In this document: one piece after another, positions 2,094-21,436 of the stretch
How the letters are laid out: each line of letters begins with the position of its first letter
Numbering within the stretch: position 1 is the first letter of the stretch
Virus record (IMG/VR): IMGVR_UViG_3300042214_000074
Coordinates: 1 to 31,821 of that record
Reading direction: 5' to 3' (one strand)
Source of the DNA: a virus
Taxonomy: Duplodnaviria > Caudoviricetes
DNA: 31,821 nucleotides
Position numbers and translations under genes: made by a program
The notes under the pieces: model-generated
Seen by the model: only the letters and a program-made list of their open reading frames with translations
Database searches by the model: none
Told to the model about the DNA's origin: nothing

Positions 2094-2206
2094 GTTGGCA
2101 AATGGTTTTTGTAGTCAAACCATTACGGGCGCTGTGGCGTGGATATCGAAAATGCCCGGACGGTGCCGGGGTTTGGTTGGCTCGCCCTTCCCTGGGCGGT
2201 TGCTGG

Positions 2207-6473: not shown

Positions 6474-6481
6474 AAAAGTTA

Positions 6482-6549
6482 TTGACAACACAACACCGAA
6501 ACACTAAAATATAGGTATAGGGTTGAGAAACAGCCCAGGCAATCAAGCC
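6482..6549 (+). promoter_or_regulatory. Promoter plus double-hairpin leader cassette, copy 1
   Basis: TTGACA-N17-TAAAAT, then GGGTTG-AGAAA-CAGCCC and GGC-AATCAA-GCC. Confidence 0.85.
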
Positions 6550-6578
6550 AACAACAACAAAAAGAAAGGCGCAAGAAA

Positions 6579-6965
6579 ATGACTACAGCAATCGCAACAA
6601 CCAACAAAACCAAATCCGACCTGGAACTCCACAACGCAAACAGCGGCGACGTCCGCCCGCTTCACCCGGACGCAATCAAAAAGGCCGCCACCGAGGCTTC
6701 CGACCACCTCGCCCACATCCTCCCCGAGGAGCAATGGGACGGCCTCTGGCTCCACGTGATGGACCACCCGAAAACCCTGCCAGGCGGATTTGCTGACATA
6801 CACTGGGGCGTCTGTGCAACGCTGCAACGCCGGGGCGGCTACTGGTTCCTGGTTCGCGTGACTCGCACCCGCCTATACGCTGGCAAGCCCAACTACCAGA
6901 TCGTGGGCCTGGAAAAGAAGGTCACCGAAATCCTGAAACACGCCAGCAAGCCAGCAGCAAATTGA
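6579..6965 (+). CDS. Hypothetical phage early protein (128 aa)
   Basis: AAGG RBS; directly downstream of cassette copy 1. Confidence 0.8.
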   Translation: MTTAIATTNKTKSDLELHNANSGDVRPLHPDAIKKAATEASDHLAHILPEEQWDGLWLHVMDHPKTLPGGFADIHWGVCATLQRRGGYWFLVRVTRTRLYAGKPNYQIVGLEKKVTEILKHASKPAAN

Positions 6966-6967
6966 TT

Positions 6968-7059
6968 TGCTATACTCGGGGAAACCTTGCACAAGAGGAG
7001 ACCCCGAGATGGTTGGACCCAAGGTGATTTGACAAGAGCCCCGCCCTGGGGGCTTTTTT
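6968..7059 (+). ncRNA. Putative short transcript (~77 nt) containing a 7-codon minigene MVGPKVI (7009-7032)
   Basis: Extended -10 TG-C-TATACT (6968-6976), GAGGAG RBS, ATG 7009, terminator 7035-7059. Confidence 0.4.
7035..7059 (+). terminator. Rho-independent terminator
   Basis: AGAGCCCC-loop-GGGGCT followed by T run. Confidence 0.8.
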
Positions 7060-7147
7060 GATTACAACCCAACCACATCGTTCACCCCTGCGACTGATCC
7101 ACCTGCCCGTCGTGCGCGGTTATACTGGGTGAAATTGATTACAAAAC

Positions 7148-7348
7148 ATGATTGACCTCAACGAATACCGCGCCGAACGCCAAGACCTGAACCGCCGAGT
7201 AGCTGTCTGCATGTATGAAATGCTGGGCAAGCCTCCTGGGGTTTGTAATCAAAAACTGGCCGATATCCTCGCCTGCGGTGTCATGACTGAGGACTCCGTC
7301 GCCGACCTTGAAGCCGCTGTCCGTCGTCAATCCCTTCGCGCCGTTTAA
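7148..7348 (+). CDS. Hypothetical protein (66 aa)
   Basis: ATG start, TATACT -10-like box upstream, terminator downstream. Confidence 0.6.
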   Translation: MIDLNEYRAERQDLNRRVAVCMYEMLGKPPGVCNQKLADILACGVMTEDSVADLEAAVRRQSLRAV

Positions 7349-7417
7349 CCCCTGCCCCTCGCCCTAGAATGCGTCCGGTTTCTCATGCCGGTATCCAGGG
7401 TCGGGGGTTATTTTTTT
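7346..7417 (+). terminator. Large-loop hairpin with T7 tail, probable terminator
   Basis: TAACCCCTGCCCCT (7346-7359) pairs with AGGGTCGGGGGTTA (7397-7410), then TTTTTTT. Confidence 0.55.
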
Positions 7418-7458
7418 GATATTTTTTCATTATTTTGCCATTTATTTTGTTTTAGTTG

Positions 7459-7527
7459 TTGACAACACAACACCCACCCACTATAATGGGTGTATAGGGT
7501 TGAGAAACAGCCCTCGGCAATAAGGCC
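7459..7527 (+). promoter_or_regulatory. Promoter plus double-hairpin leader cassette, copy 2
   Basis: Perfect TTGACA-N17-TATAAT, then GGGTTG-AGAAA-CAGCCC and GGC-AATAAG-GCC. Confidence 0.9.
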
Positions 7528-7553
7528 AAAACAAAAAGAAAGAGAGATACAAA

Positions 7554-7853
7554 ATGACGAACGAAAACATCAAATTCATCGAAGCAAAGAAAGAAAGCAA
7601 CAGCTCAGTCCGCGCCGAATTTCGAATTGAAGGTCAAAGCGTTTCTGTTGAGTGGAGCAACATCCACGAAGGCACCGGTGAAACGCTCGACACTTTTGGC
7701 CTGACCAACGACGTGAACAGCGTCGACAGCGCCCTGGCCGCCCGAGTGATCGATGCGATCAATGAAGGCGAAGGCGGAGAAGACGACGAACTGTATCTCG
7801 CTATTCGCGACACTTTCGACGCAACTGACGCCGCCGAGCTGGCTGCACAGTGA
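7554..7853 (+). CDS. Small acidic hypothetical protein (99 aa), candidate anti-defence protein
   Basis: About 22 D/E vs about 7 K/R by hand count; own promoter and downstream hairpin. Confidence 0.85.
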   Translation: MTNENIKFIEAKKESNSSVRAEFRIEGQSVSVEWSNIHEGTGETLDTFGLTNDVNSVDSALAARVIDAINEGEGGEDDELYLAIRDTFDATDAAELAAQ

Positions 7854-7859
7854 TAACCC

Positions 7860-7881
7860 AGCCCCTCCGGGGGCTATTATT
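7860..7881 (+). terminator. Hairpin / weak terminator
   Basis: AGCCCC-TCCG-GGGGCT then ATTATT. Confidence 0.5.
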
Positions 7882-7919
7882 AACACAATACAAACGCATT
7901 TATTAATGAGGGCAACAAC

Positions 7920-8243
7920 ATGAGCGGTTTCCAATTATCAGCAGTAAAGCACGCGGGCGGGGATTTCTCTCTGAGGGTTCTGAGTCTTTACTCATACACC
8001 GGACAGAGCACGATGGGCCGGAGCCTTGCCGAGGTTCTTGATGCGGCAGTGATTGAGCTGGGGCTCTCGGTGCATGAGGTTCACGATATCCAGGTGTCAG
8101 CCGTGAAGGGTGAGCGCATTGAGCCCGAGGACCTGGTGTTCGGCAGCTTTTTCGAGAACCGGGTGCGGCTGGTCAGTGAGTCGCGCAACGGCCTCAGAAC
8201 TTACGAAAATGGGCGATTTTACAAGCCAGGCTGGGCTGCGTAA
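7920..8243 (+). CDS. Hypothetical protein, distant paralogue of 8293-8628
   Basis: GAGG RBS; shares Q..KH.G, G..xAE.L, (E/D)(V/I)H, EP and RFY pattern with the neighbour. Confidence 0.7.
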   Translation: MSGFQLSAVKHAGGDFSLRVLSLYSYTGQSTMGRSLAEVLDAAVIELGLSVHEVHDIQVSAVKGERIEPEDLVFGSFFENRVRLVSESRNGLRTYENGRFYKPGWAA

Positions 8244-8292
8244 GCCCTGGCCATTTCCCGCAACGCGGGCCAATCAAACAACAGGAGAGCAC

Positions 8293-8628
8293 ATGCAAAT
8301 CGTAATCACAAAACACTCGGGCACCTACTTCGCCCGCCTTTTCCGATCCGCCCAGAGTATGCCCGGCGAAGCCCAGGGCGAAACCTTCGCGGAGGCGCTC
8401 CAGGGCGTCCTGGTTGCCAACAACGCACGCCCCGAGGATATCCACCGCATGGAGTTCCTGGTGCACTCTGACGAAGGGTTCGAGCCCGGCGAGGACAGCG
8501 ATTTGGGGCCCCTTGCGGGCTTGATTGAGACGACCGGGGAGATGGGCGAGGCGGTTCGGTTTTATCGTTCCAGTGAGTCCCTGAAGCCCTTGCCGCTGCC
8601 GTGGGAGATCAACCCGCCCGATGGCTGA
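8293..8628 (+). CDS. Hypothetical protein with HicB-antitoxin-like N-terminus
   Basis: AGGAG RBS; QIVITKHSGTYFA...AQGETFAEAL resembles the HicB G-x-T-x-E-E-A motif. Confidence 0.6.
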   Translation: MQIVITKHSGTYFARLFRSAQSMPGEAQGETFAEALQGVLVANNARPEDIHRMEFLVHSDEGFEPGEDSDLGPLAGLIETTGEMGEAVRFYRSSESLKPLPLPWEINPPDG

Positions 8629-8654
8629 TGCGTTTCCGTTTTTCTTTAGTTTAG

Positions 8655-8672
8655 TATATAATAAACCAAAGC
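8655..8672 (+). promoter_or_regulatory. Repeated motif TATATAwTAAACCAAAGC upstream of terS (also 15721-15738; shorter inverted copies 11122-11135 and 21353-21365)
   Basis: 17/18 identity between the 8655 and 15721 copies; contains TATAAT. Confidence 0.55.
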
Positions 8673-8687
8673 AGACAGAACGGAACA

Positions 8688-9125
8688 ATGGCAGCGAAAA
8701 GGACTTCAACCGCCAAAAAGACAACCACCAAAACCCATGCCAAGCCCCGGCAGCCCAAGGCGATCACGCCCGAGGTCCGGGCAAGGGTTGCCGAATATGC
8801 AGGTCTGGGCCTCACCTGGTCCCAGATATCCGGCGTGCTCAAAGTCCCGGAGCGAACCCTCCAGCGCTATTGCCAGGAAGATTACAACGACGGAAAGGCC
8901 CAAAAAGGGGCGATTGCCGTGGCCAAGCTCTGGCAACTGGTTGAAGGTGGGCACCCTGCCTCCATTTTCTTTTTTCTCAAAACCCAGATGGGTTGGAAAG
9001 AAACCAGCAAAAACGAGCTATCCGGCCCCGACGGTAAGCCAATCCAGACCGAAGGCAACTTGGAAGTAGAAGTCACGCCCGAGAAAGTCAAAGCCATCAT
9101 GGCCGCCCTCGATAAGGAATTTTGA
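8688..9125 (+). CDS. terS: Terminase small subunit
   Basis: N-terminal HTH (GLTWSQISGVLKVPERTL), 'IFFFLKTQMGWKE' and 'ELSGPDGKPI' segments typical of TerS. Confidence 0.8.
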   Translation: MAAKRTSTAKKTTTKTHAKPRQPKAITPEVRARVAEYAGLGLTWSQISGVLKVPERTLQRYCQEDYNDGKAQKGAIAVAKLWQLVEGGHPASIFFFLKTQMGWKETSKNELSGPDGKPIQTEGNLEVEVTPEKVKAIMAALDKEF

Positions 9126-9130
9126 CAGCA

Positions 9131-9220
9131 ATGAAACCCACCACAGAGGCCGAGCAGCTGGCAGAGCTGCGGCGGCAAATGGATAAGTATCGCCGCGAAT
9201 ATAAGCCATTGACAAAATAA
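9131..9220 (+). CDS. Possible 29-aa peptide MKPTTEAEQLAELRRQMDKYRREYKPLTK
   Basis: ATG 5 nt after terS stop with AAGGA upstream; below ORF-track cutoff. Confidence 0.35.
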   Translation: MKPTTEAEQLAELRRQMDKYRREYKPLTK

Positions 9221-9316
9221 TTTTCATTATTAGTTGTTTAGTATTGATGCCGCCATTAGATATTCACATAATAACCTTGTCCTGTATTTATTAACTCAAC
9301 AAACAAGGCAAATATT

Positions 9317-9715
9317 ATGAGCAACGCACAAGCACTAATGAAATTGATGTCCAGCCTCAATTCTGAATCAGAGCCGGAGAAATGTGAGCGCGCCGAGCTA
9401 ACGGCAAATATCTCTCGCGAGGATGCTCTTCAAGGCACTCTCACTGTGCTGGAAATCCACCAGAAAGGCCGAGAAGGCTGCGATGCGGGCGAGTTTGACG
9501 ACGACCTGGCGCTGGCCTTCTTTCGATTGAGGCATGAAAAAGGCCCATTCCTGGCGTGCTGGAAGCTGTTCGAAGAGTGGTTGAAGTCAAAAGGGACGAC
9601 CGATGAAGGGGTTCTGGACAACCATTTCAAAGAGTTTGACCCGCTGTCGGATGAGCCATGGGTTGTTTTCCTAGCCATCGCATACAACGAAATGAGCGCC
9701 GCCTGGTCGCATTAA
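9317..9715 (+). CDS. Acidic hypothetical protein (moron-like unit)
   Basis: Promoter TTGATG-N17-CATAAT (9244-9272), AAGG RBS, downstream terminator. Confidence 0.75.
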   Translation: MSNAQALMKLMSSLNSESEPEKCERAELTANISREDALQGTLTVLEIHQKGREGCDAGEFDDDLALAFFRLRHEKGPFLACWKLFEEWLKSKGTTDEGVLDNHFKEFDPLSDEPWVVFLAIAYNEMSAAWSH

Positions 9716-9723
9716 CCCATTCT

Positions 9724-9757
9724 ACCCTCGCCGGTGGTCGGTGGGGGTCTTTTTTTT
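9724..9757 (+). terminator. Rho-independent terminator
   Basis: ACCCTCGCCG-GTGGT-CGGTGGGGGT then C and T8. Confidence 0.75.
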
Positions 9758-9766
9758 GGAGTCATT

Positions 9767-10087
9767 ATGAAGCATCAAAAATGGAAGCGCAGATCAAAGC
9801 AAGAGTGGCTTGAAATCGTTGATCGTCAGCGTGCGAGCGGGCTCTATGCGACAACCTTCTGCGAGCAGGAAAGTCTTGAATATCGCAGTTTTTGCCGCTG
9901 GCGTCGGCACTTTTACGGCACAAGGGATACGTTCCGAGCATCAAAAGACCCCCAAATCAATCACTACCGAGAGTCGGTTCAGGTGAATATTGATCTCCCG
10001 GCGCTGATTGAGATGGCTGAGATGGGCAAGAAGGTGTCAATCAATCTGGGCAACGGCGTCGAGATGCGCCTGGGGCTTGTGGCATGA
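9767..10087 (+). CDS. IS66 TnpA-like HTH protein (solitary)
   Basis: RRSKQEW...SGL....FC........FCRWRR and C-terminal INLGNGVEMR; GGAG RBS. Confidence 0.7.
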   Translation: MKHQKWKRRSKQEWLEIVDRQRASGLYATTFCEQESLEYRSFCRWRRHFYGTRDTFRASKDPQINHYRESVQVNIDLPALIEMAEMGKKVSINLGNGVEMRLGLVA

Positions 10088-10362
10088 GCAGCGGCAAAAA
10101 CGATATTGAAACCATCCAGCACCCCAAAATTGAAACGCCCGAACACGGGCAAGTCATCGAAACCCCCGAGGTCGAGGAGCCTCTCCTGGTCCTGTCCCGC
10201 GCTGAGCTGATCGGCGCATTGACGACAATGGGGAATGACCTGCTGTTTCGCCTCAATGCGGGCGATGACGCCATGGACTCGACGATGGAAGTGATTGAAA
10301 ACGCGATCCAGGAGTTGTGCGGGGAGTCTGTTGATGCTGCGCTGGCCTGGTGTGGGGATTGA
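10084..10362 (+). CDS. Acidic hypothetical protein (92 aa)
   Basis: ATGA overlap with upstream gene; short internal repeat IET(I/P).. Confidence 0.65.
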   Translation: MSSGKNDIETIQHPKIETPEHGQVIETPEVEEPLLVLSRAELIGALTTMGNDLLFRLNAGDDAMDSTMEVIENAIQELCGESVDAALAWCGD

Positions 10363-10366
10363 TGAC

Positions 10367-10726
10367 ATGACAGCAATCAATATTGAAAAGATCAACAACA
10401 GCGCAAGCGCCAAGCACCACATGCGGATCGCCGAGATTTTTGAGGCGCTGGACAGACCTGAGGAGGCTGACAGTCATCGGCAAATTGCTGAGTCATTCGA
10501 TGCGCTCGAAAAGGAAAGAGAGGCCAGTATCAGACGACAGGAGCTGTTCAGAGAGTCGTTTCTCGCTGGTATTCAGGCGGAGAATGCAAGGAGTCATGCC
10601 GAGATGATCAAAGAGGAGGCGGAAGAAGCAAGAGACCGCAGGCTGCGCCGGATGTTTGCGATTAATATGGGTCTTCTGTCGGGAGCTTTTGTTCTCCAGA
10701 TGGTCAGTATTTTGGTTTTTCAATGA
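10367..10726 (+). CDS. Hypothetical coiled-coil protein with C-terminal transmembrane segment
   Basis: GGGG RBS; hydrophobic tail MFAINMGLLSGAFVLQMVSILVF. Confidence 0.7.
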   Translation: MTAINIEKINNSASAKHHMRIAEIFEALDRPEEADSHRQIAESFDALEKEREASIRRQELFRESFLAGIQAENARSHAEMIKEEAEEARDRRLRRMFAINMGLLSGAFVLQMVSILVFQ

Positions 10727-11001
10727 TGAGCGACCTCCTCGAATACGCCGCCCATGATGGTCTTATGGTGTTCGAAAAGGATGGATGCCTGATTATCGAA
10801 GATCCGCGACCCTACGAGCCGAGCATTCCCGAGCTGTCGTTTCCGGCTGACGTGCCCAGGCTCGGGCGATTTCAGCGTTGTGCGCTGTCGTCAGCTATCT
10901 CCTCCCGAAATTCGTCCTCAACCTCAGGCCTCGGCTGTTCCATGAGTTCCCTGCCCTTTTTCCCAATCTCTCGCAGCCTCTCGGGCGTCGGCCTGAACTG
11001 A
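10723..11001 (+). CDS. Hypothetical protein (C-terminal half overlaps the antisense gene)
   Basis: ATGA coupling; protein-like N-terminus, Ser-rich shadow-like C-terminus. Confidence 0.45.
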   Translation: MMSDLLEYAAHDGLMVFEKDGCLIIEDPRPYEPSIPELSFPADVPRLGRFQRCALSSAISSRNSSSTSGLGCSMSSLPFFPISRSLSGVGLN

Positions 11002-11042
11002 CCCCGAAAGCCTGGCTGCGGTTGCTTCTGTTTGTCGGTCAT
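10872..11042 (-). CDS. Small charged protein (56 aa) with KGG-repeat-like motif
   Basis: Strong AAGGAG RBS 6 nt before ATG 11042; PERLREIGKKG resembles the KGG stress motif. Confidence 0.55.
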   Translation of the reverse strand: MTDKQKQPQPGFRGQFRPTPERLREIGKKGRELMEQPRPEVEDEFREEIADDSAQR

Positions 11043-11172
11043 CTCCATCTCCTTTTGGTTCCAATCATAGCAAAAAGCGCGTAACGGTGCGGGATTGCGG
11101 GCGGTTATCCAATGTTTAGTATGGTTTAATCTATATAGTTTCGCGTATAATAACTCAAAATGTGCGCGAAAC

Positions 11173-12207
11173 TTGAACAAGTTCAATTTATACCAGGGCG
11201 ATTGCCTTGAGGTTCTGAAAACCATTCCTGATGCCTCCATCGACAGCATCGTCACCGATCCACCCTACGGGCTGAGCAAGCAGCCGGATATCGCAGAGGT
11301 CCTGACAAAGTGGCTCGCTGGTGAGGATTACACCCACCGGGGCAGCGGCTTTATGGGCAAGAGCTGGGACTCGTTCGTCCCTGGGCCTGCCGTATGGCGT
11401 GAGTGCTTCCGCGTGCTGAAACCGGGCGGTCATTTGATTGCGTTTGCTGGGTCTCGGACTTATGACTTGATGGCCATTGCGGTGCGGCTCGGGGGTTTCG
11501 AGCTGAGAGACCAGGGGTTTTATCTATATGGTTCCGGGTTTCCTAAGTCTCTGGATATCTCGAAAGCTCTCGACAAGGCGGCTGGGGCTGAGCGTGAGGT
11601 TGACGGGAAAGCATTTGGCGTAGGCAAACACAGCAACACGTCGATTGAAGGTGGCGCATTTAATAGCTCGTATGACAAAACAAAGCCCGCAACTCCCGCC
11701 GCCCAAAAATGGCAAGGCTGGGGCACCGCCCTAAAACCGGCACACGAACCCTTCGTCATCGCCCGCAAGCCCTTGGAGGGGACTGTTGCCAACAATGTGA
11801 TGAAGCATGGCGTGGGTGGTCTCAACATTGACGGATGCAGGCATGGGGAGCGGTTCCCAGCCAACCTCCTCCACGACAACAGCGAAGCCGTGGCCGATAT
11901 CCTGGGCGATAAAGCTCGGTATTTTTACGGCACGAAGGCCAACAAGCGGGACCGCAATGAGGGGCTGGAAGACGCCAAGAACACGCACCCAACCGTCAAG
12001 CCCACCGACCTCATGGCCTACCTCTGCCGCCTCGTCACACCCCCAGGCGGCACTGTCCTGGACCCCTTTATGGGCTCTGGCTCAACCGGCAAGGCTTGCG
12101 CGGCTGAGGGCTTCGAGTTCATCGGCGTGGAGATGGATGCCGAATACCTGGCCATTGCTTCGGCCCGGATTTCGTTTGCTTACAACCAAGCCGGGGGTGC
12201 GGCATGA
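11173..12207 (+). CDS. DNA methyltransferase, N6-adenine/N4-cytosine, beta class (start uncertain, TTG 11173)
   Basis: GDCL, TDPPY (motif IV), HPTVKP, VLDPFMGSGSTG (motif I). Confidence 0.93.
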   Translation: MNKFNLYQGDCLEVLKTIPDASIDSIVTDPPYGLSKQPDIAEVLTKWLAGEDYTHRGSGFMGKSWDSFVPGPAVWRECFRVLKPGGHLIAFAGSRTYDLMAIAVRLGGFELRDQGFYLYGSGFPKSLDISKALDKAAGAEREVDGKAFGVGKHSNTSIEGGAFNSSYDKTKPATPAAQKWQGWGTALKPAHEPFVIARKPLEGTVANNVMKHGVGGLNIDGCRHGERFPANLLHDNSEAVADILGDKARYFYGTKANKRDRNEGLEDAKNTHPTVKPTDLMAYLCRLVTPPGGTVLDPFMGSGSTGKACAAEGFEFIGVEMDAEYLAIASARISFAYNQAGGAA

Positions 12208-13148
12208 GTTTCGAGCTGCACCTGGGGGATTGCCTGGAAAAGATGAAGGATATCCCGGATGGGTCGGTGGATGCGGTTATTTGTGATCCGCCGTATGGGA
12301 CTATAAATGGCGTGGTTGCTGAAGAGTCTCACCACGGCATGAAGGGAAAAACTGCCTGGGATATCTCAATAGAAACGGCGGCCATGTTCGCGGAATGCAA
12401 TCGAGTCCTGCGCACAAATGGGGCTCTTTTGCTGTTTGCGCAGGAGCCATATACCAGTCACCTGATCACCAACGCCCACGCCAACCTGCCTTTTAGTTAC
12501 CGCCTGACGTGGCTGAAAGATCATTTTGCCAATTCGCTGATCGCAAAGAAGGCCCCGGTCAATTACACCGAGGATATCTGCGTTTTCTTCAAGAAATACG
12601 ACACCCTCGCCCAGCATCCGTTGCGGGATTATTCGAAAACCGTCATGAGTTTCATCGGCAAGGGCCTGAAACAAATCAATACCGAGCTGGGGCATCGTCG
12701 TGCTGAGCATTTCTTCTATGTGGACTCGACCCAGTTCGGGCTCTGCACCCCCAAAACCTACGCCGAACTCTGCGAGCTTTACGGCATCAGCAGCCAGCCC
12801 TGGTTCAAGTCATACGACGAAATGAAGGAGATCGACCGCAGGTTCACCCGCAGGTTCAACCTCCCAGAAGGCCAGAAATTCAAGTCCAACGTCCTGCAAT
12901 ACCGCAAGGACTACACCGGCCAACACCCCACCCAAAAGCCCGTGGCGCTGATGGAAGACCTGGTGCACACCTACACCCGCCCCGGCGATACGGTTCTGGA
13001 TTTCACCATGGGCAGCGGCTCCACCGGCGTAGCAGCTGGCAACCTGGGGCGGCGTTTCATTGGCATCGAGATGGACGAGGGCTATTTCGATATCGCCCGG
13101 TCTCGGGTTGGGGTTGCTTACAAACAAACAGAGGAGGAGGTGGCGTGA
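12204..13148 (+). CDS. DNA methyltransferase, N6-adenine/N4-cytosine, beta class
   Basis: GDCL, CDPPY, HPTQKP, VLDFTMGSGSTG; ATGA overlap with the first MTase. Confidence 0.93.
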   Translation: MSFELHLGDCLEKMKDIPDGSVDAVICDPPYGTINGVVAEESHHGMKGKTAWDISIETAAMFAECNRVLRTNGALLLFAQEPYTSHLITNAHANLPFSYRLTWLKDHFANSLIAKKAPVNYTEDICVFFKKYDTLAQHPLRDYSKTVMSFIGKGLKQINTELGHRRAEHFFYVDSTQFGLCTPKTYAELCELYGISSQPWFKSYDEMKEIDRRFTRRFNLPEGQKFKSNVLQYRKDYTGQHPTQKPVALMEDLVHTYTRPGDTVLDFTMGSGSTGVAAGNLGRRFIGIEMDEGYFDIARSRVGVAYKQTEEEVA

Positions 13149-14110
13149 TTGGATTGATTATTAAGGGCTCGCAAGTGGTGGCTGGTTGTGCGGCGAGAGC
13201 ACTGGGCGTTTTACGCGGTAGCGTGCGCAGCAAGAAAGAGATTTTTATTGATCATGAGGCTGATTTCGATGAGGTCGTTGATGCGGTCGGTAAGCTGGCC
13301 GAGGACCCATCCATAACAATTTCATTTACGGGTGTCAGAAAGCCTCTGTTTCTCGAATTCGTTCAGGATTTCTTCCCGATCATCCATGATTTTGAGTTCG
13401 AGATTGCTGAGCACCACACGAACTATGCAATCGCCCTTGAGCGGTGGTTTCTTGGGCGGGATCGCAAATCGGTCATTAATGCGCCGCATAGATACAGCAA
13501 CACCAGCCTGCTGACGATGGGCATTATCTGGGCGCTTATCAAAAACCCTTCTTCTCGCTTCGTTTATTTGAGCTTTTCCGAGTGCCTTGTCAAAGAGGCA
13601 TTGAGCCAGATCAGCGACCTGGTCAATTCCGAGAAATTCCAGGAAGCGTTCCCGTCTCTCGGTTTCAGGGCTGAGGGCGGACGACTGATAACAAGCCAGG
13701 GCGGCGGCGTTTCTGGGGCCTTCACGTTTGACCTGAAAGCGGTCCGAAGCCAGAAGGAATGGGTTTGCGGGTCTTTTAGGCGCTCATCGACTGGTGGGCT
13801 TGTAGTGGATCACGCCATTCCTCCATCCCACGCTGATGACGTTCCCGAAAGATATCTCCCAATGCTTCAAGAGCTGGTCGGCGGTCGCGGTGAGGGTTTG
13901 CCGGTCCTTCTTTCTTGCCCGCGATTTGGCAAGAACGATCCGACAGCAATCGCCCTGAAATGCTGCGATTGGACTGCTCGTGTCACGCGCTTGCCTGCCG
14001 AGAAGGATGGAGTGCCAACGTGGCCGGGCAAGCTCAACGCGACGGATATCGCAATGAGAAGACAGACAAGCCCGGAATTGTTTTCAAGGCTTTACCAGCA
14101 GGAAGTTTAA
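13145..14110 (+). CDS. Degenerate terminase-large-subunit ATPase-domain paralogue (pseudo-TerL), no nuclease domain
   Basis: Collinear with TerL N-half, but Walker A PHRYSNT vs PPRYGKT and Walker B LVVDH vs IIIDD; ends at LYQQEV where TerL has QYQQTP. Confidence 0.8.
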   Translation: MIGLIIKGSQVVAGCAARALGVLRGSVRSKKEIFIDHEADFDEVVDAVGKLAEDPSITISFTGVRKPLFLEFVQDFFPIIHDFEFEIAEHHTNYAIALERWFLGRDRKSVINAPHRYSNTSLLTMGIIWALIKNPSSRFVYLSFSECLVKEALSQISDLVNSEKFQEAFPSLGFRAEGGRLITSQGGGVSGAFTFDLKAVRSQKEWVCGSFRRSSTGGLVVDHAIPPSHADDVPERYLPMLQELVGGRGEGLPVLLSCPRFGKNDPTAIALKCCDWTARVTRLPAEKDGVPTWPGKLNATDIAMRRQTSPELFSRLYQQEV

Positions 14111-14143
14111 ACACTAAATGGCAAGGATGCCGAGAGCCAAGGA

Positions 14144-15703
14144 ATGGATGCAGTCAGCAGAGCAGTAATCAGAGAGAAGTGCGAGCAGGACTTCATGTTC
14201 TTCGTTCGCTATTTCTTCAAGATGGGCACCGGCTCCCGTTTCGTTGTGAATTGGCATCATCACGAAATCGCCAAAAACATGATGCTGGCGACGACTGGCG
14301 AGGTGCTCCGAATGATCGTGGGCATGCCGCCTCGCTACGGAAAGACTGAGTTGGTTGTCAAGATGTTCGTGGCCTGGGCGATTGCTAAAAACCCCCGCGC
14401 CAAGTTCATCCATCTCTCCTACTCTGACGAGCTTGCATTCGATAACAGCAGCGCGATCAAGGAAATCATTCTCTCCGATGCCTTCCGCGAGTTGTGGCCG
14501 CACATCAAGCTCAAAGACGACGCGAAGAGCAAGAAGAAATGGTATACCGCCCAAGGTGGCGGCCTCTATGCAACAAGCTCCGGGGGTGCGGTCACGGGCT
14601 TCGGTGCGGGCTCAACAGCTGCCGAGGCCGAGGCCGAGGGAGACGACGAACACCTGGAAGAGCTTCGCCGTCTGGGCCTTGAAATCGAATGGGCCGACGC
14701 TGGCAAGGAGGAGCGAGACCCCAACCTTTTCTGGGGTGCGATTATCATTGATGACCCAATCAAGCCCACGGACGCCGACAGCGCGGTGGTTCGAAAGACC
14801 ATCAACAACCGCATGGTCAACACAATCGGGAGCCGGGTGAACAGCCGAAAAACCCCGATTATAGTCGTTATGCAGCGCCTGCATGAGGAAGACACCACCG
14901 GGTTCCTGCTGAACGGCGGAACGGGCGAGAAGTGGCACCACGTTGTCTTCCCGGCCCTCTACGAGGAAAACGGCCAGGAGAAGGCTCTGTGGCCCTACAA
15001 GCACACGGTCGAAGAGTTGAAACAGATGCGCGAGGCCAACGCGTATGTGTTCTCCGGTCAATACCAGCAAACCCCAACCCCAGCAGCCGGGGGCGTGGTC
15101 AAGCTCCAGTGGTTCGAACGCTACAAAGAACCACCCGCCGAGCCCGAGCAAATCATTTTCAGCTGCGACACAGCATACAAGCCAGGACAAATGAGAGACC
15201 CCAGCGTCGTCGGTGTATTCGGGAAGTTCCGCAAGCGTTGGTACCTGCTGCACATTTGGCGCGCCCGAGTGACCTATCCAGAACTCAAGCGGACCACATA
15301 CGCAATGGCGGACAGATGGAGGCCGCACGGGATATTGGTCGAAGATAGGGCCAGCGGCCAGTCGCTAATACAAGACATGCGAGAGGATGGGTTGCCAGCA
15401 ATACCAATCCAGCCCGAGGCAAACAAGCAGATCCGGATGGACAACCAGGCCCCGATGCTTGAAGCCGGGCTAGTGCTGTTGCCAGAGCGTGCTGAGTGGC
15501 TCTATGAGTTCGAGCAAGAGGCAGTGCATTTCCCGAAAAGCAAGCACGACGACCAGATCGACGCCCTCTCCCAGTTCCTGAAATGGTCCCGCAATGCCAG
15601 CCTGGAATTCCTGAGCGTGGGCGGCGACGAGTGGGCCGAGGTGGCAAAAGAGATGGGCGACGACCCCGACGATTGGGACGAGTTCGACGATGATTTCGAT
15701 TGA
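14144..15703 (+). CDS. terL: Terminase large subunit
   Basis: PPRYGKT Walker A, IIIDDP Walker B, MQRLH, YQQxP, nuclease SCDTA, VEDRASG and HDDQIDALSQ. Confidence 0.97.
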   Translation: MDAVSRAVIREKCEQDFMFFVRYFFKMGTGSRFVVNWHHHEIAKNMMLATTGEVLRMIVGMPPRYGKTELVVKMFVAWAIAKNPRAKFIHLSYSDELAFDNSSAIKEIILSDAFRELWPHIKLKDDAKSKKKWYTAQGGGLYATSSGGAVTGFGAGSTAAEAEAEGDDEHLEELRRLGLEIEWADAGKEERDPNLFWGAIIIDDPIKPTDADSAVVRKTINNRMVNTIGSRVNSRKTPIIVVMQRLHEEDTTGFLLNGGTGEKWHHVVFPALYEENGQEKALWPYKHTVEELKQMREANAYVFSGQYQQTPTPAAGGVVKLQWFERYKEPPAEPEQIIFSCDTAYKPGQMRDPSVVGVFGKFRKRWYLLHIWRARVTYPELKRTTYAMADRWRPHGILVEDRASGQSLIQDMREDGLPAIPIQPEANKQIRMDNQAPMLEAGLVLLPERAEWLYEFEQEAVHFPKSKHDDQIDALSQFLKWSRNASLEFLSVGGDEWAEVAKEMGDDPDDWDEFDDDFD

Positions 15704-15752
15704 TTTAGATGCTCATTTATTATATATTAAACCAAAGCGAAATTTATAAAAC

Positions 15753-16133
15753 ATGGGCAAACATTTAAAGGATTTCCGTCAAGGGGATACCTACGTTTAC
15801 GGGGTTGAGCAATTTGCGACTGACGACACAGGAGCAGATGTGCCTGTCGATCTTTCGGGATGTCGCTTGACCCTGTCTCTCACTTCGTCGTTTGACGAGC
15901 CTCCGGTCTTTACGTTCTCCAAAATTGCAGGCGACCACATCACCGACAAGCCCGCCCAAGGGCTCATCAAAATGGTCCTGGAGAGCGAGTTCACGCGCCT
16001 CATACCCGCAGGCAAATACTACTACGACGTGCAATTGGAGATGCCGGACGGCACTGTTTCGACTGTTCTGCCGCCGCTCGAAGACTACAAGGACCGGGTT
16101 CAGGTCATCCCCGATATTAGCGACGAAATTTAA
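15753..16133 (+). CDS. BppU-N-like baseplate/fibre-attachment protein
   Basis: RQGDT...PVDLSG...GLI...AGKYYYDVQL pattern. Confidence 0.65.
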   Translation: MGKHLKDFRQGDTYVYGVEQFATDDTGADVPVDLSGCRLTLSLTSSFDEPPVFTFSKIAGDHITDKPAQGLIKMVLESEFTRLIPAGKYYYDVQLEMPDGTVSTVLPPLEDYKDRVQVIPDISDEI

Positions 16134-16268
16134 CGAAAAACTCCGGGCGTGAGTCCACTCGGAAGAACACAAAGGGATCTGCGAAGCGCCGTGCGTGGCC
16201 AGCGATAAGAGCGAATAGCGCAAAGGGTTGAGAGCAGCAGCCCAGAAATTAACCAATTGAGGCCAAGG

Positions 16269-18107
16269 ATGGCGGAAACTAAAACGATTGTTAACCAGCA
16301 AACCACCCGGATCATCACGAAGGCGGCGGACGTTGTCGTCGTTCAGGGCCAAAAAGGCGAAACCGGAGCCCAGGGCCAGGCAGGCAGCGACGGCGTCGGT
16401 ATCGTCTCGTTGTATGCCTTGAACGGCTTCGTTTATGCGTCATTGAGCGATGGCCGGGATATCAAGATTGCAGAACTGCCACGCGGCCCGCAAGGCCCGA
16501 CAGGCCCCCAGGGAGCCGCAGGCACGAACGGATTGGACGGCGAGGACGGCGTTGGCATCATTGACGCAGGCATCGTTGACGGCGATCTCTACCTGGAAAT
16601 GACCGACGGGATTGTCTACAACGTGGGCCCCGTTGTCGGCCCCCAAGGTCCCCAAGGCCCCACCGGGGCGAAAGGCGACAAGGGCGACCCAGGTGCCACG
16701 GGATTGCAAGGTCCAGCGGGCCCGACCGGCGCTCAAGGCCCTGCGGGTGTTGATGGGGCTGATGGGGCCCAGGGCCCTGCGGGCGTTTCGGTAGCGTCGG
16801 CAAACATCGACCAAAACAACCACCTGATCCTGACTCTGAGCGACGCGACAACCGTGGACGCTGGGGAGTTGCCTGCGGGCTCTGGGGGCGGTTCTGATTG
16901 GCTCACGGACGCCCCTGTGGGCCACTTGCTGCTGCTGCCCGAACTGCCGACAAACGGCAAGTGGATCGCCCGTGATGGGGCTCAGCAGCCGTCCACGAGC
17001 TACCCGGAACTCGCTGGCAAAACCGGATATCCATTGATTTCAATTCCGGACAGCTATGCCAACGTTGCCGCGTTTACCTCGCCGCACGAGATCAAATACA
17101 AGTTCCCGGACTTCGGGCAGACCCTGACCCTCGCCGATGGCACGATCATCATCAACGCCCTCGATATGTTTATATATTCAAAAGATGCGGGCGCAACATG
17201 GCAGACCCCGGCCTTTTTAGCTGAGAACCAAATCTCCTGGGGCCTGTTCGAGCATGCGGGCAAGCTTTACGCCACAAGCAGCTCCACCGGCTCGGTGCAT
17301 ATTTACAACAGCACGACGATGGAGTTCCTCTACACCGTTTCGATATCCTCGGGTTATACCACGTTCAGCATCGTCTACGATGACCGTGCGGGCCTTTTCT
17401 ATGCGGTCGGCGTGAAGGTTGTGAGCACCAGTCAATCGCGCCGCTATGGTGTTTTTGAGTCGGTTGATGGCCAGACCTGGACCTTCAAGTATGACGTCAA
17501 TCCGGGCGGCGTGACAGAGAGCACGCTGATGTCTCGGATATTCATCACCGAGGCCGGGTTCGTTGTTGTTAATACGATTTATGCCCGGAACACGATGCAC
17601 ACCGTCCATTTTTATCCGGATATGGACAGCGCCCACACGGAGCACGCAGTTCCCACCGGCACCGGGCAATCCTATGACAACTTTTTCGCAAATGGCGCAG
17701 TCTCGGGCAACGTTGTCCTGCTTCTGTCGCAATCCCGGCAATATCGCAGCGTAGATGGCGGCCAAACCTTCGAGGAGTTTTTCCCCACAGGACTGGGCAC
17801 CAGCGGCTGGGACCTGGTCTCAATCGGAAATGGCGGCTGGATTGTGGCAAGCACTGCGGACGGCATTCGCTACTCAAAGAACGACGGCGACACCTGGGTC
17901 ACGTATGCAGCCAGCGCACTCACCAGCCCGGATTTGAAGCGCCTGGCGCTTGATGCTGATGACAACGTGTTCGCATTTAGCAACAACACCAACGCCGACA
18001 CCTGCGCGAAATTCCTCGCATTCAAGCCCGCAGATGCCGATTTCCGAGTCCCAACGCTCACCCCTCCGGACAGCTCGGCGAGCTGGTTCGTGAAGGCCAA
18101 ACCATAA
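16269..18107 (+). CDS. Tail fibre / receptor-binding protein: collagen-like stalk, tail-collar-like domain, Asp-box beta-propeller
   Basis: G-X-Y runs with DGVGI linkers; PVG...WIARDG...YPEL collar start; SKDAGATW, SVDGQTW, SVDGGQTF and SKNDGDTW Asp-boxes; FRVPTL...FVKAK end. Confidence 0.85.
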   Translation: MAETKTIVNQQTTRIITKAADVVVVQGQKGETGAQGQAGSDGVGIVSLYALNGFVYASLSDGRDIKIAELPRGPQGPTGPQGAAGTNGLDGEDGVGIIDAGIVDGDLYLEMTDGIVYNVGPVVGPQGPQGPTGAKGDKGDPGATGLQGPAGPTGAQGPAGVDGADGAQGPAGVSVASANIDQNNHLILTLSDATTVDAGELPAGSGGGSDWLTDAPVGHLLLLPELPTNGKWIARDGAQQPSTSYPELAGKTGYPLISIPDSYANVAAFTSPHEIKYKFPDFGQTLTLADGTIIINALDMFIYSKDAGATWQTPAFLAENQISWGLFEHAGKLYATSSSTGSVHIYNSTTMEFLYTVSISSGYTTFSIVYDDRAGLFYAVGVKVVSTSQSRRYGVFESVDGQTWTFKYDVNPGGVTESTLMSRIFITEAGFVVVNTIYARNTMHTVHFYPDMDSAHTEHAVPTGTGQSYDNFFANGAVSGNVVLLLSQSRQYRSVDGGQTFEEFFPTGLGTSGWDLVSIGNGGWIVASTADGIRYSKNDGDTWVTYAASALTSPDLKRLALDADDNVFAFSNNTNADTCAKFLAFKPADADFRVPTLTPPDSSASWFVKAKP

Positions 18108-18120
18108 GGATTTGACGACA

Positions 18121-18336
18121 ATGACACCCAGAGAAAAGGCCCAAGCGCGGGCGCAGCGCAATCGAATGATCAGCGAGACGGATTTCGTGATGCTGCCTGA
18201 CTCGGATTACGCGCAAGCGCAGCGGGACGAAATGAAGGTCTATCGGCAGGCCCTGCGGGACATCACTGCCCAATTTGATGCGGCTGCCACGGCGGATGAC
18301 CTGGTCTGGCCGGTACCGCCCGCCTGGTTTTACTAA
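18121..18336 (+). CDS. Tail fibre assembly chaperone
   Basis: RAQRNRMISETDF..LPD...YRQALRDIT...VWPVPP signature. Confidence 0.85.
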   Translation: MTPREKAQARAQRNRMISETDFVMLPDSDYAQAQRDEMKVYRQALRDITAQFDAAATADDLVWPVPPAWFY

Positions 18337-18368
18337 TTTATATACCCATTTAATAACGGACGGACACG

Positions 18369-20399
18369 ATGAGCGAGACGGAACTCGATTTCGAAAAACG
18401 AAACATGGCAATAGCGCAGAGCCACCTGGCCCAAATGGAGCGGGCGCGGTGGACGGATTGGACGCTGCAAAAGACGGTGAAAGAAGGCGTTCGGGCGTCT
18501 GGTTGGGTGTTTCTTGCTAACAAGCTGATCGGCGACGCGGTCTCCTCGGCTCCGCTGGTTGTTTATAACGCGGACGGCAAAATCGAATGGGAGCACCCGG
18601 TGACGATGCTGCTCCAAAACCCGCACCCTGAATTTTCCAGGGCTGATGTGTTCAGGCTGTTGGCTTCATGGCTCAATTTAACGGGGACCGGCTACTTTAA
18701 AAAAGTGGCTGGGCTCCGTGGCCAAACAAAACAACTCTGGCCCATCTCTCCGGACCGACTCGCCCCTTTGCAATCCAAGGAGGCCGCCTATCTGATCGAC
18801 GGCTATGAGGTGGAAATCAAGGGCGAACGAAAGCTCTCTGTCGAATACACACCCGAGAATGTGATCCGGTTCTGCACCCCCGACCCCGCTGACCCGTTGC
18901 GCGGCCTCTCGCCTCTCCTGGCGGCCTCTCGTGCGGTGGATCTGGACGTGGGCCAGCAGGATTGGAATAAGGCCCTGCTGCAAAACCGTGGCAACCCAGA
19001 CATCGCTATCACGATGAAGGGCGACGTCAACGAGCAGCAGAAGAAATCCATTTTGCGCTCAATAATGAGCAAATTCCGAGGCCGCCGCAACGCTGGCATG
19101 CCCCTGGTTCTGGGTGGCGAGGCGCAGGTCACCCGGCTCGGACTGTCGCAACAGGAGATGGATTTCCTGGCGTCTCGCAAGTGGAACCGCGACGAAATCC
19201 TGAGCATCTACGGCGTGCCGCCTCAACTTGCAGGGGCGCAAGAGTCGAGCACGTATAACAATTTCAACGAAGCGAAGCGGGTGTTCTGGATCAATACCAT
19301 CATCCCGCTTCTGTCGTTGCTGTGCGATGCCCTCAACCGCTCCCTCTCCGACGAACTGGCAGAGGGCTATTACATCGGCCCCGACCTGTCTGACGTTGAA
19401 GCGCTTAGTGAAACCCAGGACGCAAAGCTCGAACGCGCTGAAAAGCTGTTCAAGATGGGCGTGCCGATGAAAACGATCAACGAGCGCCTGGAGCTGGGCC
19501 TGCAAGAGTTTGAGGCCTGGGACAAGCCCTGGGGCGGACAGAAGGCTGCGGGGTTGTCATCAAATGAGAGTTTGAGCGCAAATAGAACCGACGATGTCGA
19601 TGGGCTCGCTACGCGAAAAAAGTCCAATGGCCCCACTCCTAATGGTTGGCAGTTGAAGCCGTTCGAGGTGCGGGCCAGTGAGCAGGAAAAGGAAGAGGAG
19701 AGGCGAGAAAAGCTGGCAAACGGCGCAATGCTGACCACCCTCTCCCAAATGCTGGAGGCCCAAAAACTGGTGGCCCTGGAGGCCGTGGAGGCCGAGCTGC
19801 CCGCCGAGGAGCTGGTCGGGCTGATGGCTGAGGTCTCTGCCGAGTTTCGGGATGAACTGGAAGCCCATGCCGTGGAGGCTGGCGTGCAGGCGGCTGAAAA
19901 TATCGTCATCGAACGCCGGGGCCTGAACCTTCGGGCGGATACCGAAATCATGGACATCGTTGCGAGCAAAATCACCCAGGAGAGGTTGGTCTGGAATGAA
20001 CTCGCGTTGATTGACCAAATCACGGGCGAGCGCATTGCCAATGAATTGATCGCCGGGCTTGAGGCGGGTGAAAGTATTCAGCAAATTCAGGATCGCCTGT
20101 CGAAGGGCTCGGACTTCTCCCCGGTTCGGGCGCTTCGGATATCCCGGACCCTGGTCGGCTCTGCTTCATCGATTGGGCAGTTGGCGGAAGCTGAGGACGT
20201 TGGCTGCACCACCAAAACCTGGATAACCAGCGCAGCCCACTCACGGGACGGACACAAGAACCGGAACGGGGAAACGGTGGCGATTGATGCGCAATTTTCA
20301 ATGCAGTATGGCGGGCGACCTCGTTGGCCTTTGGATCAAGACACAACCGCAGCGGACAGGATCAACTGCCGGTGCGGGTTGGATTTCGGGTTCGATTAA
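18369..20399 (+). CDS. Portal protein fused to a MuF/SPP1 gp7-like minor head domain
   Basis: HK97-like portal motifs (LLQNPHP, GLSPL, YGVPP) in the first ~390 aa; C-terminal KTW...R.GH...INCRC. Confidence 0.88.
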   Translation: MSETELDFEKRNMAIAQSHLAQMERARWTDWTLQKTVKEGVRASGWVFLANKLIGDAVSSAPLVVYNADGKIEWEHPVTMLLQNPHPEFSRADVFRLLASWLNLTGTGYFKKVAGLRGQTKQLWPISPDRLAPLQSKEAAYLIDGYEVEIKGERKLSVEYTPENVIRFCTPDPADPLRGLSPLLAASRAVDLDVGQQDWNKALLQNRGNPDIAITMKGDVNEQQKKSILRSIMSKFRGRRNAGMPLVLGGEAQVTRLGLSQQEMDFLASRKWNRDEILSIYGVPPQLAGAQESSTYNNFNEAKRVFWINTIIPLLSLLCDALNRSLSDELAEGYYIGPDLSDVEALSETQDAKLERAEKLFKMGVPMKTINERLELGLQEFEAWDKPWGGQKAAGLSSNESLSANRTDDVDGLATRKKSNGPTPNGWQLKPFEVRASEQEKEEERREKLANGAMLTTLSQMLEAQKLVALEAVEAELPAEELVGLMAEVSAEFRDELEAHAVEAGVQAAENIVIERRGLNLRADTEIMDIVASKITQERLVWNELALIDQITGERIANELIAGLEAGESIQQIQDRLSKGSDFSPVRALRISRTLVGSASSIGQLAEAEDVGCTTKTWITSAAHSRDGHKNRNGETVAIDAQFSMQYGGRPRWPLDQDTTAADRINCRCGLDFGFD

Positions 20400-20420
20400 A
20401 AAAGGCCCCGCGAGGGGCCT
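20398..20420 (-). terminator. Rho-independent terminator for the reverse moron
   Basis: AGGCCCC-GCGA-GGGGCCT with an A6 run on the + strand upstream (U tract on -). Confidence 0.8.
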
Positions 20421-20429
20421 GGCGGTTGG

Positions 20430-21212
20430 TTATTTTGAGAGCCTGAGCGCTTCCTTCATTGCCTCAACCATGTCGAACCGCCCGCCCTTTTCTGCAAGCT
20501 TTTCGAGATGCATGGCCAGGTCGTTTTCGTCGTTGTGCTCGGATTGAAAATATGCGAACTCCCCGGCCAGTTTGTTGTTCATCGGGTGCTCGGCTGCATT
20601 TACCAGCTCAGCCGCTTCCTCGATGAGCCCCACGTCGGCCATGTCGTTGATGCCCTGCATGTTCGGCTTGCGAGGTGCTCGCAGGCGGTCCGCAAATTTG
20701 ACTGCAAACAGCCGGGGTTGCATGCCGACGATGTCCTCAAGCTCGGCCCAATCGTCGCTGATGAGCTTGAATTCCTCGTCCTCTCGGGCGTTGGAGATGG
20801 TCAGCACTTCGCCGTCGAATTCGCCCCAAATCTCTTGCTCGTCTTCGTTAATCAGGCGGGCAATCAACTGGTGCTGGCATTCGAGGGCGTCGACAAGGTG
20901 GTCTTCCAGATATGGGTCGACATCCATCATGCTGGCCATCTCTTCGATGAACTGAGAGTCGGGCAGTAGGATCAAGCGCTGGGCGTCGTCTTCGTTGTCT
21001 GCAATCGTTGTTGCGTAGTTGTCGCCCTCGCCTGCGAACATCTTGAAGTTGTCGGGGTTGATATAGATGTGGTCATCGAAATAGTTGTCAGTGACTGAGA
21101 GCCCTTGCAGGTCGGCGACCGCGTTGATGATGTCGCTCTCCCCTTCCATCTCCATGAGTTGGGCGGCCAGGGCGTTGCGGGCTTCGATGACTGCTTCTGC
21201 GAATGTTTTCAT
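20430..21212 (-). CDS. Highly acidic hypothetical protein (260 aa), moron; DNA-mimic candidate
   Basis: GAAGGA RBS, ATG 21212; about 59 D/E vs about 20 K/R by hand count. Confidence 0.85.
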   Translation of the reverse strand: MKTFAEAVIEARNALAAQLMEMEGESDIINAVADLQGLSVTDNYFDDHIYINPDNFKMFAGEGDNYATTIADNEDDAQRLILLPDSQFIEEMASMMDVDPYLEDHLVDALECQHQLIARLINEDEQEIWGEFDGEVLTISNAREDEEFKLISDDWAELEDIVGMQPRLFAVKFADRLRAPRKPNMQGINDMADVGLIEEAAELVNAAEHPMNNKLAGEFAYFQSEHNDENDLAMHLEKLAEKGGRFDMVEAMKEALRLSK

Positions 21213-21236
21213 TGTTGTTATTCCTTCGTCTGTTAT

Positions 21237-21303
21237 GGCTGAATTGCCGGGGTTGTTTCTCAACCCATATACCCATATTAACGCTGACGTGTTGGGTTGT
21301 CAA
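21237..21303 (-). promoter_or_regulatory. Promoter plus double-hairpin leader cassette, copy 3
   Basis: On - strand: TTGACA-N17-TAATAT, then GGGTTG-AGAAA-CAACCC and GGC-AATTCA-GCC. Confidence 0.85.
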
Positions 21304-21436
21304 TACTTTTTCATCTTTTTTTTGCTTTATTTTTATTTTTCTGTTTTTTTGCTGGTTTAATATATGATAAAATAAACCCATCGCGAAATTGAAAGCTGGC
21401 AGGACGCTGGCACCAATCAAATCCATGGATGGACCA

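Follow-up and report, generated by a model that had tools for sequence, protein, structure and literature searches.

Why should three unrelated genes, spread over 15 kb of one phage genome, start from nearly the same promoter and leader? The question arises in IMG/VR record IMGVR_UViG_3300042214_000074 (Caudoviricetes; positions 1 to 31,821, the whole stretch of DNA that was analysed, here called the window). In it, one cassette precedes each of three accessory genes (cargoes 1, 2 and 3). A/T-rich DNA leads into TTGACA, which is separated by 17 bp from a -10 box; two predicted hairpins and an A/C-rich leader then run up to ATG. We read the three units as a dispersed anti-defence regulon, similar to those governed by Aca (anti-CRISPR-associated) proteins, that is turned on together at entry and is likely repressed in trans by a phage protein (rough probability, 0.6). 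An earlier reading made from the letters alone (the sequence-only reading) had proposed a common expression cassette ahead of unrelated genes, and this proposal is supported: the conservation is blockwise, and the units are insertions relative to the closest relative fetched (G001; capsid 65% identical).

Three copies of one promoter and leader

The copies at 6482 (+), 7459 (+) and 21303 (-) were all located as the sequence-only reading had described them. Their parts are listed below, with the sigma70 score of each promoter.

6482..6510, +, sigma70 promoter of copy 1 (-35 TTGACA at 6482-6487, -10 TAAAAT at 6505-6510; A-rich upstream; 11/12)
6486..6496, +, tandem CAAC(A/C)C repeat of copy 1, overlapping and abutting the -35 box (candidate operator, putative role)
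6520..6549, +, predicted double hairpin of copy 1 (6520-6536 and 6538-6549)
7459..7487, +, sigma70 promoter of copy 2 (TTGACA-17-TATAAT; tandem repeat at 7463-7473; 12/12)
7497..7527, +, predicted double hairpin of copy 2 (7497-7513 and 7516-7527)
21275..21303, -, sigma70 promoter of copy 3 (TTGACA-17-TAATAT; tandem repeat at 21289-21299; 10/12)
21237..21266, -, predicted double hairpin of copy 3 (21266-21250 and 21248-21237)

A strong promoter with a 17-bp spacer, as had been claimed, is thus seen in every copy, and the three are among only 6 sites in the window that score at least 10/12. The sequence GGGTTGAGAAACARCCC occurs 3 times in the window, each time exactly, and no further occurrence appears even when 3 mismatches are allowed (expected number, 0.18; none of 100 shuffles reached 3). 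The copies are no assembly artefact: an independent contig, from run X4, covers 6475-7790, which takes in most of copy 1 and the whole of copy 2, and shows zero letter differences. The ribosome-binding sites said to follow the leader are present, as weak purine runs only (GAAAGG, GAGAGAG and GAAGGA).

The hexamer CAAC(A/C)C forms a tandem repeat across the edge of the -35 box and recurs in the hairpin 1 arms. Its frequency is 3, 3 and 4 per 56 bp in the copies versus 1.8 per kb, the motif having been picked after inspection of the copies. No inverted repeat common to the three promoters was found; copy 1 has none with a half-site of at least 4 (at least 2 of them G/C), and the repeats in copies 2 and 3 differ.

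Conservation and predicted folding of the leader

Hairpin 1 is predicted to form 6 pairs with the loop AGAAA, and hairpin 2, 3 pairs with the loop AATnnn. The leaders fold into these two hairpins with z values of -2.7 to -3.65 (6 folds); with 60 nt of coding sequence appended, the pair probability of hairpin 1 was 0.99, 0.97 and about 0.45 among the copies, and that of hairpin 2 was 0.92-0.99. The predicted hairpins begin 8-9 nt past the -10 box and end 24-29 nt ahead of ATG, the interval being A/C-rich. Hairpin 1 had been placed directly at +1; with +1 set 7 nt downstream of the -10 box it begins 2-3 nt later, so that the exact position did not hold and the proximity did. It is very probable that the host sigma70 polymerase starts at this predicted point, 2-3 nt ahead of hairpin 1.

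Position-by-position comparison confirmed that the AGAAA loop is invariant in all three copies. Invariant positions make up 6/6 of the -35 box, 8/9 of the 9 nt that follow it, 16/17 of hairpin 1 and 9/12 of hairpin 2; for the remainder of the spacer the figure is 1/8, for the upstream stretch 5/40, and for the bases ahead of ATG 2/12. Since conservation is blockwise while the flanks drift, this pattern implies selection on the cassette, with no recent duplication. The G/A change in stem 1 does keep pairing (U-G to U-A), as had been noticed; it is one-sided and concerns a single pair, which is not covariation. There are three copies only, with this one-sided stem change among them, and no homologues were found for a covariation analysis; the RNA structure is predicted from the folding energy and the one G-U/A-U change. 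P0002, a variant of cargo 3 in a different assembly, has an in-frame N-terminal extension that spans the leader with 15/16 residues identical, the one change falling just after hairpin 2; we take this as a fourth sighting of the leader, at the amino-acid level only.

These observations bear on two other explanations. Hairpin 1 might be an inverted-repeat DNA operator that stands after the start site and cooperates with the -35 half-sites, the RNA folding being incidental. Its arms are the same hexamer as at the -35 box, copy 3 is a perfect DNA palindrome, and the ribbon-helix-helix (RHH) repressor Reg576 binds heptamer direct repeats beside -35 (PMC6294495). Copies 1 and 2, however, break the palindrome exactly where a G-U pair rescues the RNA stem (a weak point, being a single substitution), and hairpin 2 retains its arms despite a variable loop and a variable linker of 1-2 nt; we consider a DNA-only operator improbable.

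Alternatively, the cassette might be an unregulated moron unit, in which a strong promoter, a stabilising 5' stem-loop and an A/C-rich leader keep three lysogenic-conversion genes on in the prophage. Just 2-3 unpaired bases precede hairpin 1, the start-codon region is 0.77-0.9 unpaired in the leader folds, RppH of B. subtilis requires at least 2 unpaired 5' bases (PMC3997798), and a cargo-2 homologue in another genome (L118, see below) is preceded by a different 5' hairpin. A stabiliser, however, needs pairing only, yet no change is seen in the AGAAA loop, in the AAT of the second loop or in 8 of the 9 bases after the -35 box, while their neighbours drift.

A promoter-less variant of hairpin 1 with a 7-nt loop and without hairpin 2, overlooked earlier, lies at 16225-16243 (+), 25 nt upstream of the tail-fibre ATG. 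Its fold z is about 0 and its membership in the cassette set is doubtful; it could subject translation of the tail fibre to the same factor, or it could be due to chance. An Rfam covariance-model scan of the window gave one chance-level match elsewhere (E 3.2) and none to the cassette.

The units as insertions

In G001, the portal gene adjoins the protease gene, the RuvC-like gene adjoins the terminase small subunit gene, and a same-strand gene follows the tape-measure gene; the cassette was not found there, and all three units are absent. Because this gene order does without all of them, unit 3, the block with units 1 and 2, and an RHH-like gene described below are, as judged by synteny, all accessory. 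In L109, likewise, the portal gene adjoins the protease gene. The following hairpins stand at the ends of the units.

7034..7060, +, terminator-like hairpin (intrinsic) closing unit 1
7860..7875, +, GC hairpin past cargo 2, its A/T tail weak (perhaps a leaky terminator; unlisted by the terminator scan)
20403..20420, -, terminator-like hairpin (intrinsic) closing unit 3

At the sequence level each unit has its own promoter and terminator, the terminator of unit 2 being weak. This layout recalls lambdoid morons, i.e. single genes with their own promoter and terminator that are inserted in a conserved gene order and expressed from repressed prophages (PMC3594210). The units differ from these in that three unrelated cargoes stand under one control sequence, and in that they show no contrast with the core genes: cargo GC content is 0.54-0.60 versus 0.52-0.59 in structural genes, and GC content at third codon positions (0.61-0.73) is like that of core genes, which also speaks against the moron explanation. 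A constitutive moron explains the data in part, accounting for the layout and not for the fixed loops, and we hold it to be unlikely.

The sequence-only reading had added that the copies may serve as recombination handles. In that case they would be kept alike mainly for cargo shuffling, as are the promoter-stem-loop (PeSL) cassettes that shuffle ORFans in T4-type phages and likewise consist of a repeated AT-rich stretch, sigma70 promoter, stem-loop and ribosome site (PMC2839356, PMC4122927). Cargo 3 does look mobile: P0002 is a mosaic (80/115 identical in the first part, 145/145 in the rest), and cargo 3 at 99% identity and terminase at 86% are both listed with a longest contig of 35,178 bases, presumably, from this length, the same one. 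The crossover in P0002, however, lies inside the gene, near residue 115, away from the cassette; copies 1 and 2 match each other perfectly over at most 22 nt. The PeSL cassettes described are those of lytic phages, with many copies, demonstrated recombination and terminator-type stem-loops mostly in or over the promoter, not in the leader (PMC2839356, PMC4122927), whereas the present cassette has three copies, its hairpins follow the -10 box without a U tail, and no recombination was seen. The role as a handle found no direct support (the contigs of 8 runs showed no joint between copies; rare variants are lost from contigs of low depth), and we regard it as very improbable.

Units 1 and 2 are oriented towards further ORFans and the terminase gene, as would suit an antitermination signal of the lambda boxB or HK022 put type that reads through downstream terminators. 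The purine-rich pentaloop on a GC stem, and the two stems one base apart at the transcript start, do recall boxB and put. In a lambda-type nut site, however, boxA lies upstream of the hairpin in the transcript, and the 2-3 nt before hairpin 1 leave no space for it; put is ~70 nt long, and the 30-nt element is far shorter; no Rfam match was obtained for the leader; and past the terminator of unit 3, transcription would go antisense through the portal gene. Because of the missing room for boxA, the copy 3 terminator and the antisense read-through, the boxB analogy drawn in the sequence-only reading fits poorly, and we give antitermination hardly any weight.

Past cargo 1, positions 6970-7060 comprise TGCTATACT, which is like an extended -10, together with a structured stretch and the terminator (z -3.69; no Rfam match), possibly a small RNA or a structured 3' untranslated region.

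Cargo genes and the cargo-2 family

6579..6965, +, cargo 1 (128 aa; basic, isoelectric point (pI) 9.1; no family; model confidence (pLDDT) 43)
7554..7853, +, cargo 2 (99 aa; pI 4.05; unnamed acidic family; candidate anti-defence protein)
20430..21212, -, cargo 3 (260 aa; pI 4.16; no family; antisense insert between the portal and protease genes)

The downstream genes had been said to look unrelated, and this was borne out. Cargoes 1-3 had no match in Pfam, PHROGs, NCBIfam, PADLOC or solved structures, and tblastn of the three against phages was empty. Atlas models of cargo 3 (pLDDT 0.50) and cargo 2 (pLDDT 0.54) gave no usable structure match, nor did the cargo-2 domain match a solved structure. 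Besides cargoes 2 and 3, four other small open reading frames (ORFs) nearby are also acidic.

Cargo 2 has relatives. An exhaustive search gave 66 proteins at E<=0.001, 12 of them at E<=1e-10. The family is acidic (67/69 sequences with pI<5) and modular: 18 of the 65 sequences kept are stand-alone, and the others bear 48 extra segments in 30 clusters (P0084, 1953 aa with a repetitive match, was excluded from the counts). One fusion (P0039) has an AcrIF13-like domain at residues 123-187 (7FI4, E 7.7e-6; solved-structure search); the AcrIF13 match of a second (P0052) is weak (E 0.022), and a third (P0031) gave nothing against solved structures. The AcrIF13-like motif is found in 5/65 family members. 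In P0076 an N-terminal part resembling a helix-turn-helix (HTH) is fused to the cargo-2 domain (PHROGs, 1/47). Among the cargo-2 homologues elsewhere, Pfam gave 1 sub-threshold match for 65 and NCBIfam 3 weak ones for 30.

Two neighbourhoods of homologues were found. In L116 (1/56 stretches), the homologue ends a same-strand run of about 10 small genes (808-4114) that contains ArdA (E 2.7e-28; 1 clear match among 11 ORFs) behind a TTGACA/TATAAT promoter; this run terminates in a 64-aa basic ORF. In L118 (1/790 genomes), it lies in an antisense insertion between the Q-like and terminase small subunit genes; this insertion has a promoter of its own, and its 5' hairpin (11 pairs) differs in sequence. 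The three genes at L118:2028-3469 (G099:C218), namely, a 252-aa cargo-2 fusion, a 68-aa ORF and a 64-aa basic ORF, form a candidate acr-aca-like locus, and a small structured transcript is predicted there on the opposite strand at 2510.

By association (acidic, modular, with an Acr-like fusion and near ArdA), anti-defence appears to be the best reading of cargo 2, which probably blocks one of the host's defences, for instance CRISPR or restriction; for cargoes 1 and 3 a like function comes at slightly less than even odds. Because the cargo-2 family is linked to AcrIF13 and ArdA, the Aca analogy proposed in the sequence-only reading is strengthened on the side of the cargo; on the side of control it did not carry over fully, as no unit has a regulator and the promoters have no common inverted repeat. 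Anti-defence genes are usually found via their neighbours, and here a control sequence flags three dispersed, unnamed candidates without an adjacent aca gene; the cargo-2 family, which numbers 66 clusters with about 30 fusion partners and is linked to AcrIF13 and ArdA, offers a candidate list for anti-CRISPR and anti-restriction screens.

Candidate operator and regulator

We infer that the tandem CAAC(A/C)C repeat is an operator and the leader a protein-binding RNA. Upon infection, or upon prophage transfer into a naive cell, the host polymerase would fire the three promoters together, and the open A/C-rich leaders would permit fast translation of the three cargoes; the accumulating phage repressor would then bind the -35 half-sites, and perhaps the folded leader too, and so shut off cassette expression in the lysogen. 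The anatomy, the insertions and the family links described above are observations, and the timing, the binding and the identity of the regulator are our interpretation of them. That the repressor binds the tandem half-sites at -35 is rather likely; that it also binds the folded leader via the hexamer in the hairpin 1 arms, by analogy with Aca1 and Aca2, is a more tentative suggestion.

31603..31821, -, helix plus RHH-like protein (72 aa; antisense insert after the tape-measure gene; candidate trans repressor)

The model of this protein (pLDDT 80) has a helix at 6-29, an extended segment at 30-40 and helices at 41-54 and 59-70, and its best fold matches are NikR and the antitoxins MazE and VapB (E 0.7-2.5). 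It is the only RHH-like gene, 10-25 kb from the cassettes, and it is tied to them solely as an accessory DNA-binding candidate of the same genome; its identity with the trans repressor is possible and rather doubtful. The part of the prophage beyond the window may hold other regulators. A search with the RHH alignment found nothing in 46 viral stretches or in two sets of 401 genomes each.

Several points weigh against the regulon reading. The RHH call comes from sub-threshold matches (Pfam E 0.016; Foldseek E 0.7-4), and the promoter of the gene falls outside the window. The ORFs after cargoes 1-3 have no HTH or RHH match, so that a regulator lies in no unit. The small ORFs closing the L116 and L118 runs show no significant match to the RHH-like protein (hhalign probability, 0.35%; 15/300 and 56/291 shuffles score equally well). 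No cargo itself matches a named Acr or defence family in the libraries given above; the basic cargo 1 lacks informative relatives; the AcrIF13 match belongs to a fused partner and is clear in 1 of the 3 fusions tested, all three of which had been chosen for a likeness; and neither of the two cargo-2 neighbourhoods carries the sequence of this cassette. The promoter motif is a tandem direct repeat, while that of the Aca operons described is an inverted repeat; strong-promoter morons are commonly expressed in lysogens as well (PMC3594210); and the RHH protein Aca14 showed no significant RNA motif (PMC13551039).

Other sequences could enter into control. P0008 is the database form of the RHH-like protein with 19 extra N-terminal residues; the DNA coding for this extension could contain a -10-like box and an A/C-rich leader. 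A stand-alone IS66 TnpA-like protein (9770-10087; E 1.2e-12) with no transposase alongside is an alternative regulator candidate. TTGA(C/T)TACAA has 5 exact sites in two clusters (1967+, 2109-, 7058+, 7135+ and 7243-) and, with one mismatch, 16 sites versus 2.4 expected; it is a candidate for a second operator, one that would serve the surroundings of the integrase-rep intergenic region and of the 66-aa gene that separates unit 1 from unit 2. A 23-nt repeat (96%) occurs in opposite orientations at 1895-1917 and 7076-7098, each copy ahead of a small gene and near TTGA(C/T)TACAA sites.

Searches for homologous cassettes

A search of phage databases for further cassettes had been suggested; no homologous cassette was found in the viral, genome, metagenome or phage collections, from whose results records nearly identical to the window may be missing. 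Scans with hairpin 1 gave 6 viral and 82 genome matches, 0/88 with both a correctly spaced promoter and hairpin 2; promoter-plus-hairpin patterns gave 0 matches in viral and metagenome contigs, and the two-hairpin pattern gave 5 viral matches, without promoter or intact stem 1. The promoter-half pattern is not distinctive by itself, as it had 17 viral matches, many promoter-like and none followed by hairpin 1; at 3 mismatches its occurrence in the window does not exceed chance. A relaxed promoter-plus-hairpin scan of 116 sequences (952 kb) returned the 3 window copies alone, and blastn of the cassette against phages returned short A-rich matches only. Searches for relatives gave 0/64 stretches by terminase scan of metagenomes, and 0/401 and 0/5 by capsid alignment.

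Comparison with known systems

The architecture has already been published for Aca regulons. In those of Aca1, Aca2, Aca10 and Aca12, a strong sigma70 promoter with a conserved motif over it and Acr-linked cargo is followed, right after the start site, by 1-2 hairpins that end about 20-30 nt before the start codon; there are up to three co-regulated operons per phage, and the DNA motif and leader stem have a common core (PMC13551039, PMC6765145). For Aca2 this core is common to the promoter repeat and the 5' untranslated region repeat (PMC6765145), and binding to the hairpins is reported to take place at the RNA level (PMC13551039). The present units differ in that they have no aca gene, which acr-aca operons encode downstream of the acr gene, are spread over 15 kb and not adjacent, and have no cargo that is a named Acr; the leader is, in a by-eye comparison, unlike the four RNA probes in the supplement of PMC13551039. 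What sets the units apart from known acr-aca operons is their dispersal, with no regulator encoded alongside, a direct-repeat half-site that recurs in the stem of the leader, and a cargo family that the libraries searched do not list. Neither the sequence motif nor the cargo-2 family had a match in the libraries searched.

By its description, Aca14 may resemble the predicted RHH-like protein of the window: it is an RHH protein with a long helical extension that represses two anti-defence operons, although it is co-encoded with its targets and binds an AT-rich inverted repeat over the -10 box (PMC13551039). Reg576, also an RHH protein, represses dispersed plasmid establishment promoters of p576 via direct repeats by -35, with an anti-restriction target that has leader stem-loops and with a logic of zygotic induction; it differs in belonging to a conjugative Bacillus plasmid, its heptamers lie upstream of -35, and stem-loops are described for the ardC unit alone (PMC6294495). 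The mycobacteriophage start-associated sequences (SAS and ESAS), to which the sequence-only reading had also likened the cassette, are a 13-bp repeat that lies at the translation start and not at the promoter (PMC3203893); with just 2/12 invariant bases before ATG, the cassette does not fit this comparison.

It is improbable, taken as a whole, that a stand-alone helix-RHH protein reads CAAC(A/C)C both as a DNA direct repeat and as a leader stem, running three new anti-defence proteins, with the cargo-2 proteins as a new modular anti-CRISPR family. If true, dual DNA/RNA control would be extended from HTH Acas to RHH proteins, and the cargo-2 domain would be one that fuses with AcrIF13 and with some 30 further partners, every one of them a candidate inhibitor. 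Binding of the leader RNA by an RHH protein would answer the question raised in PMC13551039 on RNA-level control beyond HTH Aca proteins.

Setting of the prophage

The window is a trimmed temperate siphophage-like prophage. Because contigs of run X1 extend past both ends (by ~1.8 kb leftward and ~23.7 kb rightward) and the cargo proteins were found on contigs of up to 176 kb, it is integrated and cut short.

1..1542, integrase (prophage gene)

The other genes are RuvC-like, terminase subunits, two methyltransferases, tail fibre, portal, protease, capsid and tape measure, assigned from library profiles, the RuvC-like gene having been named by eye from the sequence (library searches gave no match). 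All runs listed (24/24) are bioreactor metagenomes. A gammaproteobacterial host is suggested by the terminase, whose sole close relative of named origin comes from Vibrio parahaemolyticus (65%; 1/10 hits).

A CyRepA1-family plasmid-type replication protein (934 aa; 2207-5011; E 1.5e-41) is encoded inside this integrase-bearing phage and has a distant relative in G001. The adjacent ORFs at 13145-14110 and 14144-15703 both match terminase large subunit profiles, a diverged 321-aa copy preceding the intact 519-aa gene. Two tandem N6/N4 DNA methyltransferases (11095-13148) are a further anti-restriction trait. A second promoter-like repeat, TTTA.TATAT.AT.AA..AAA.C, occurs at 8650-8672, 15716-15738 and 21356-21378, preceding the terminase small subunit gene, the gene at 15753 and the protease gene, respectively; these copies are likely late promoters, the third of which would restart late transcription past the antisense unit 3.

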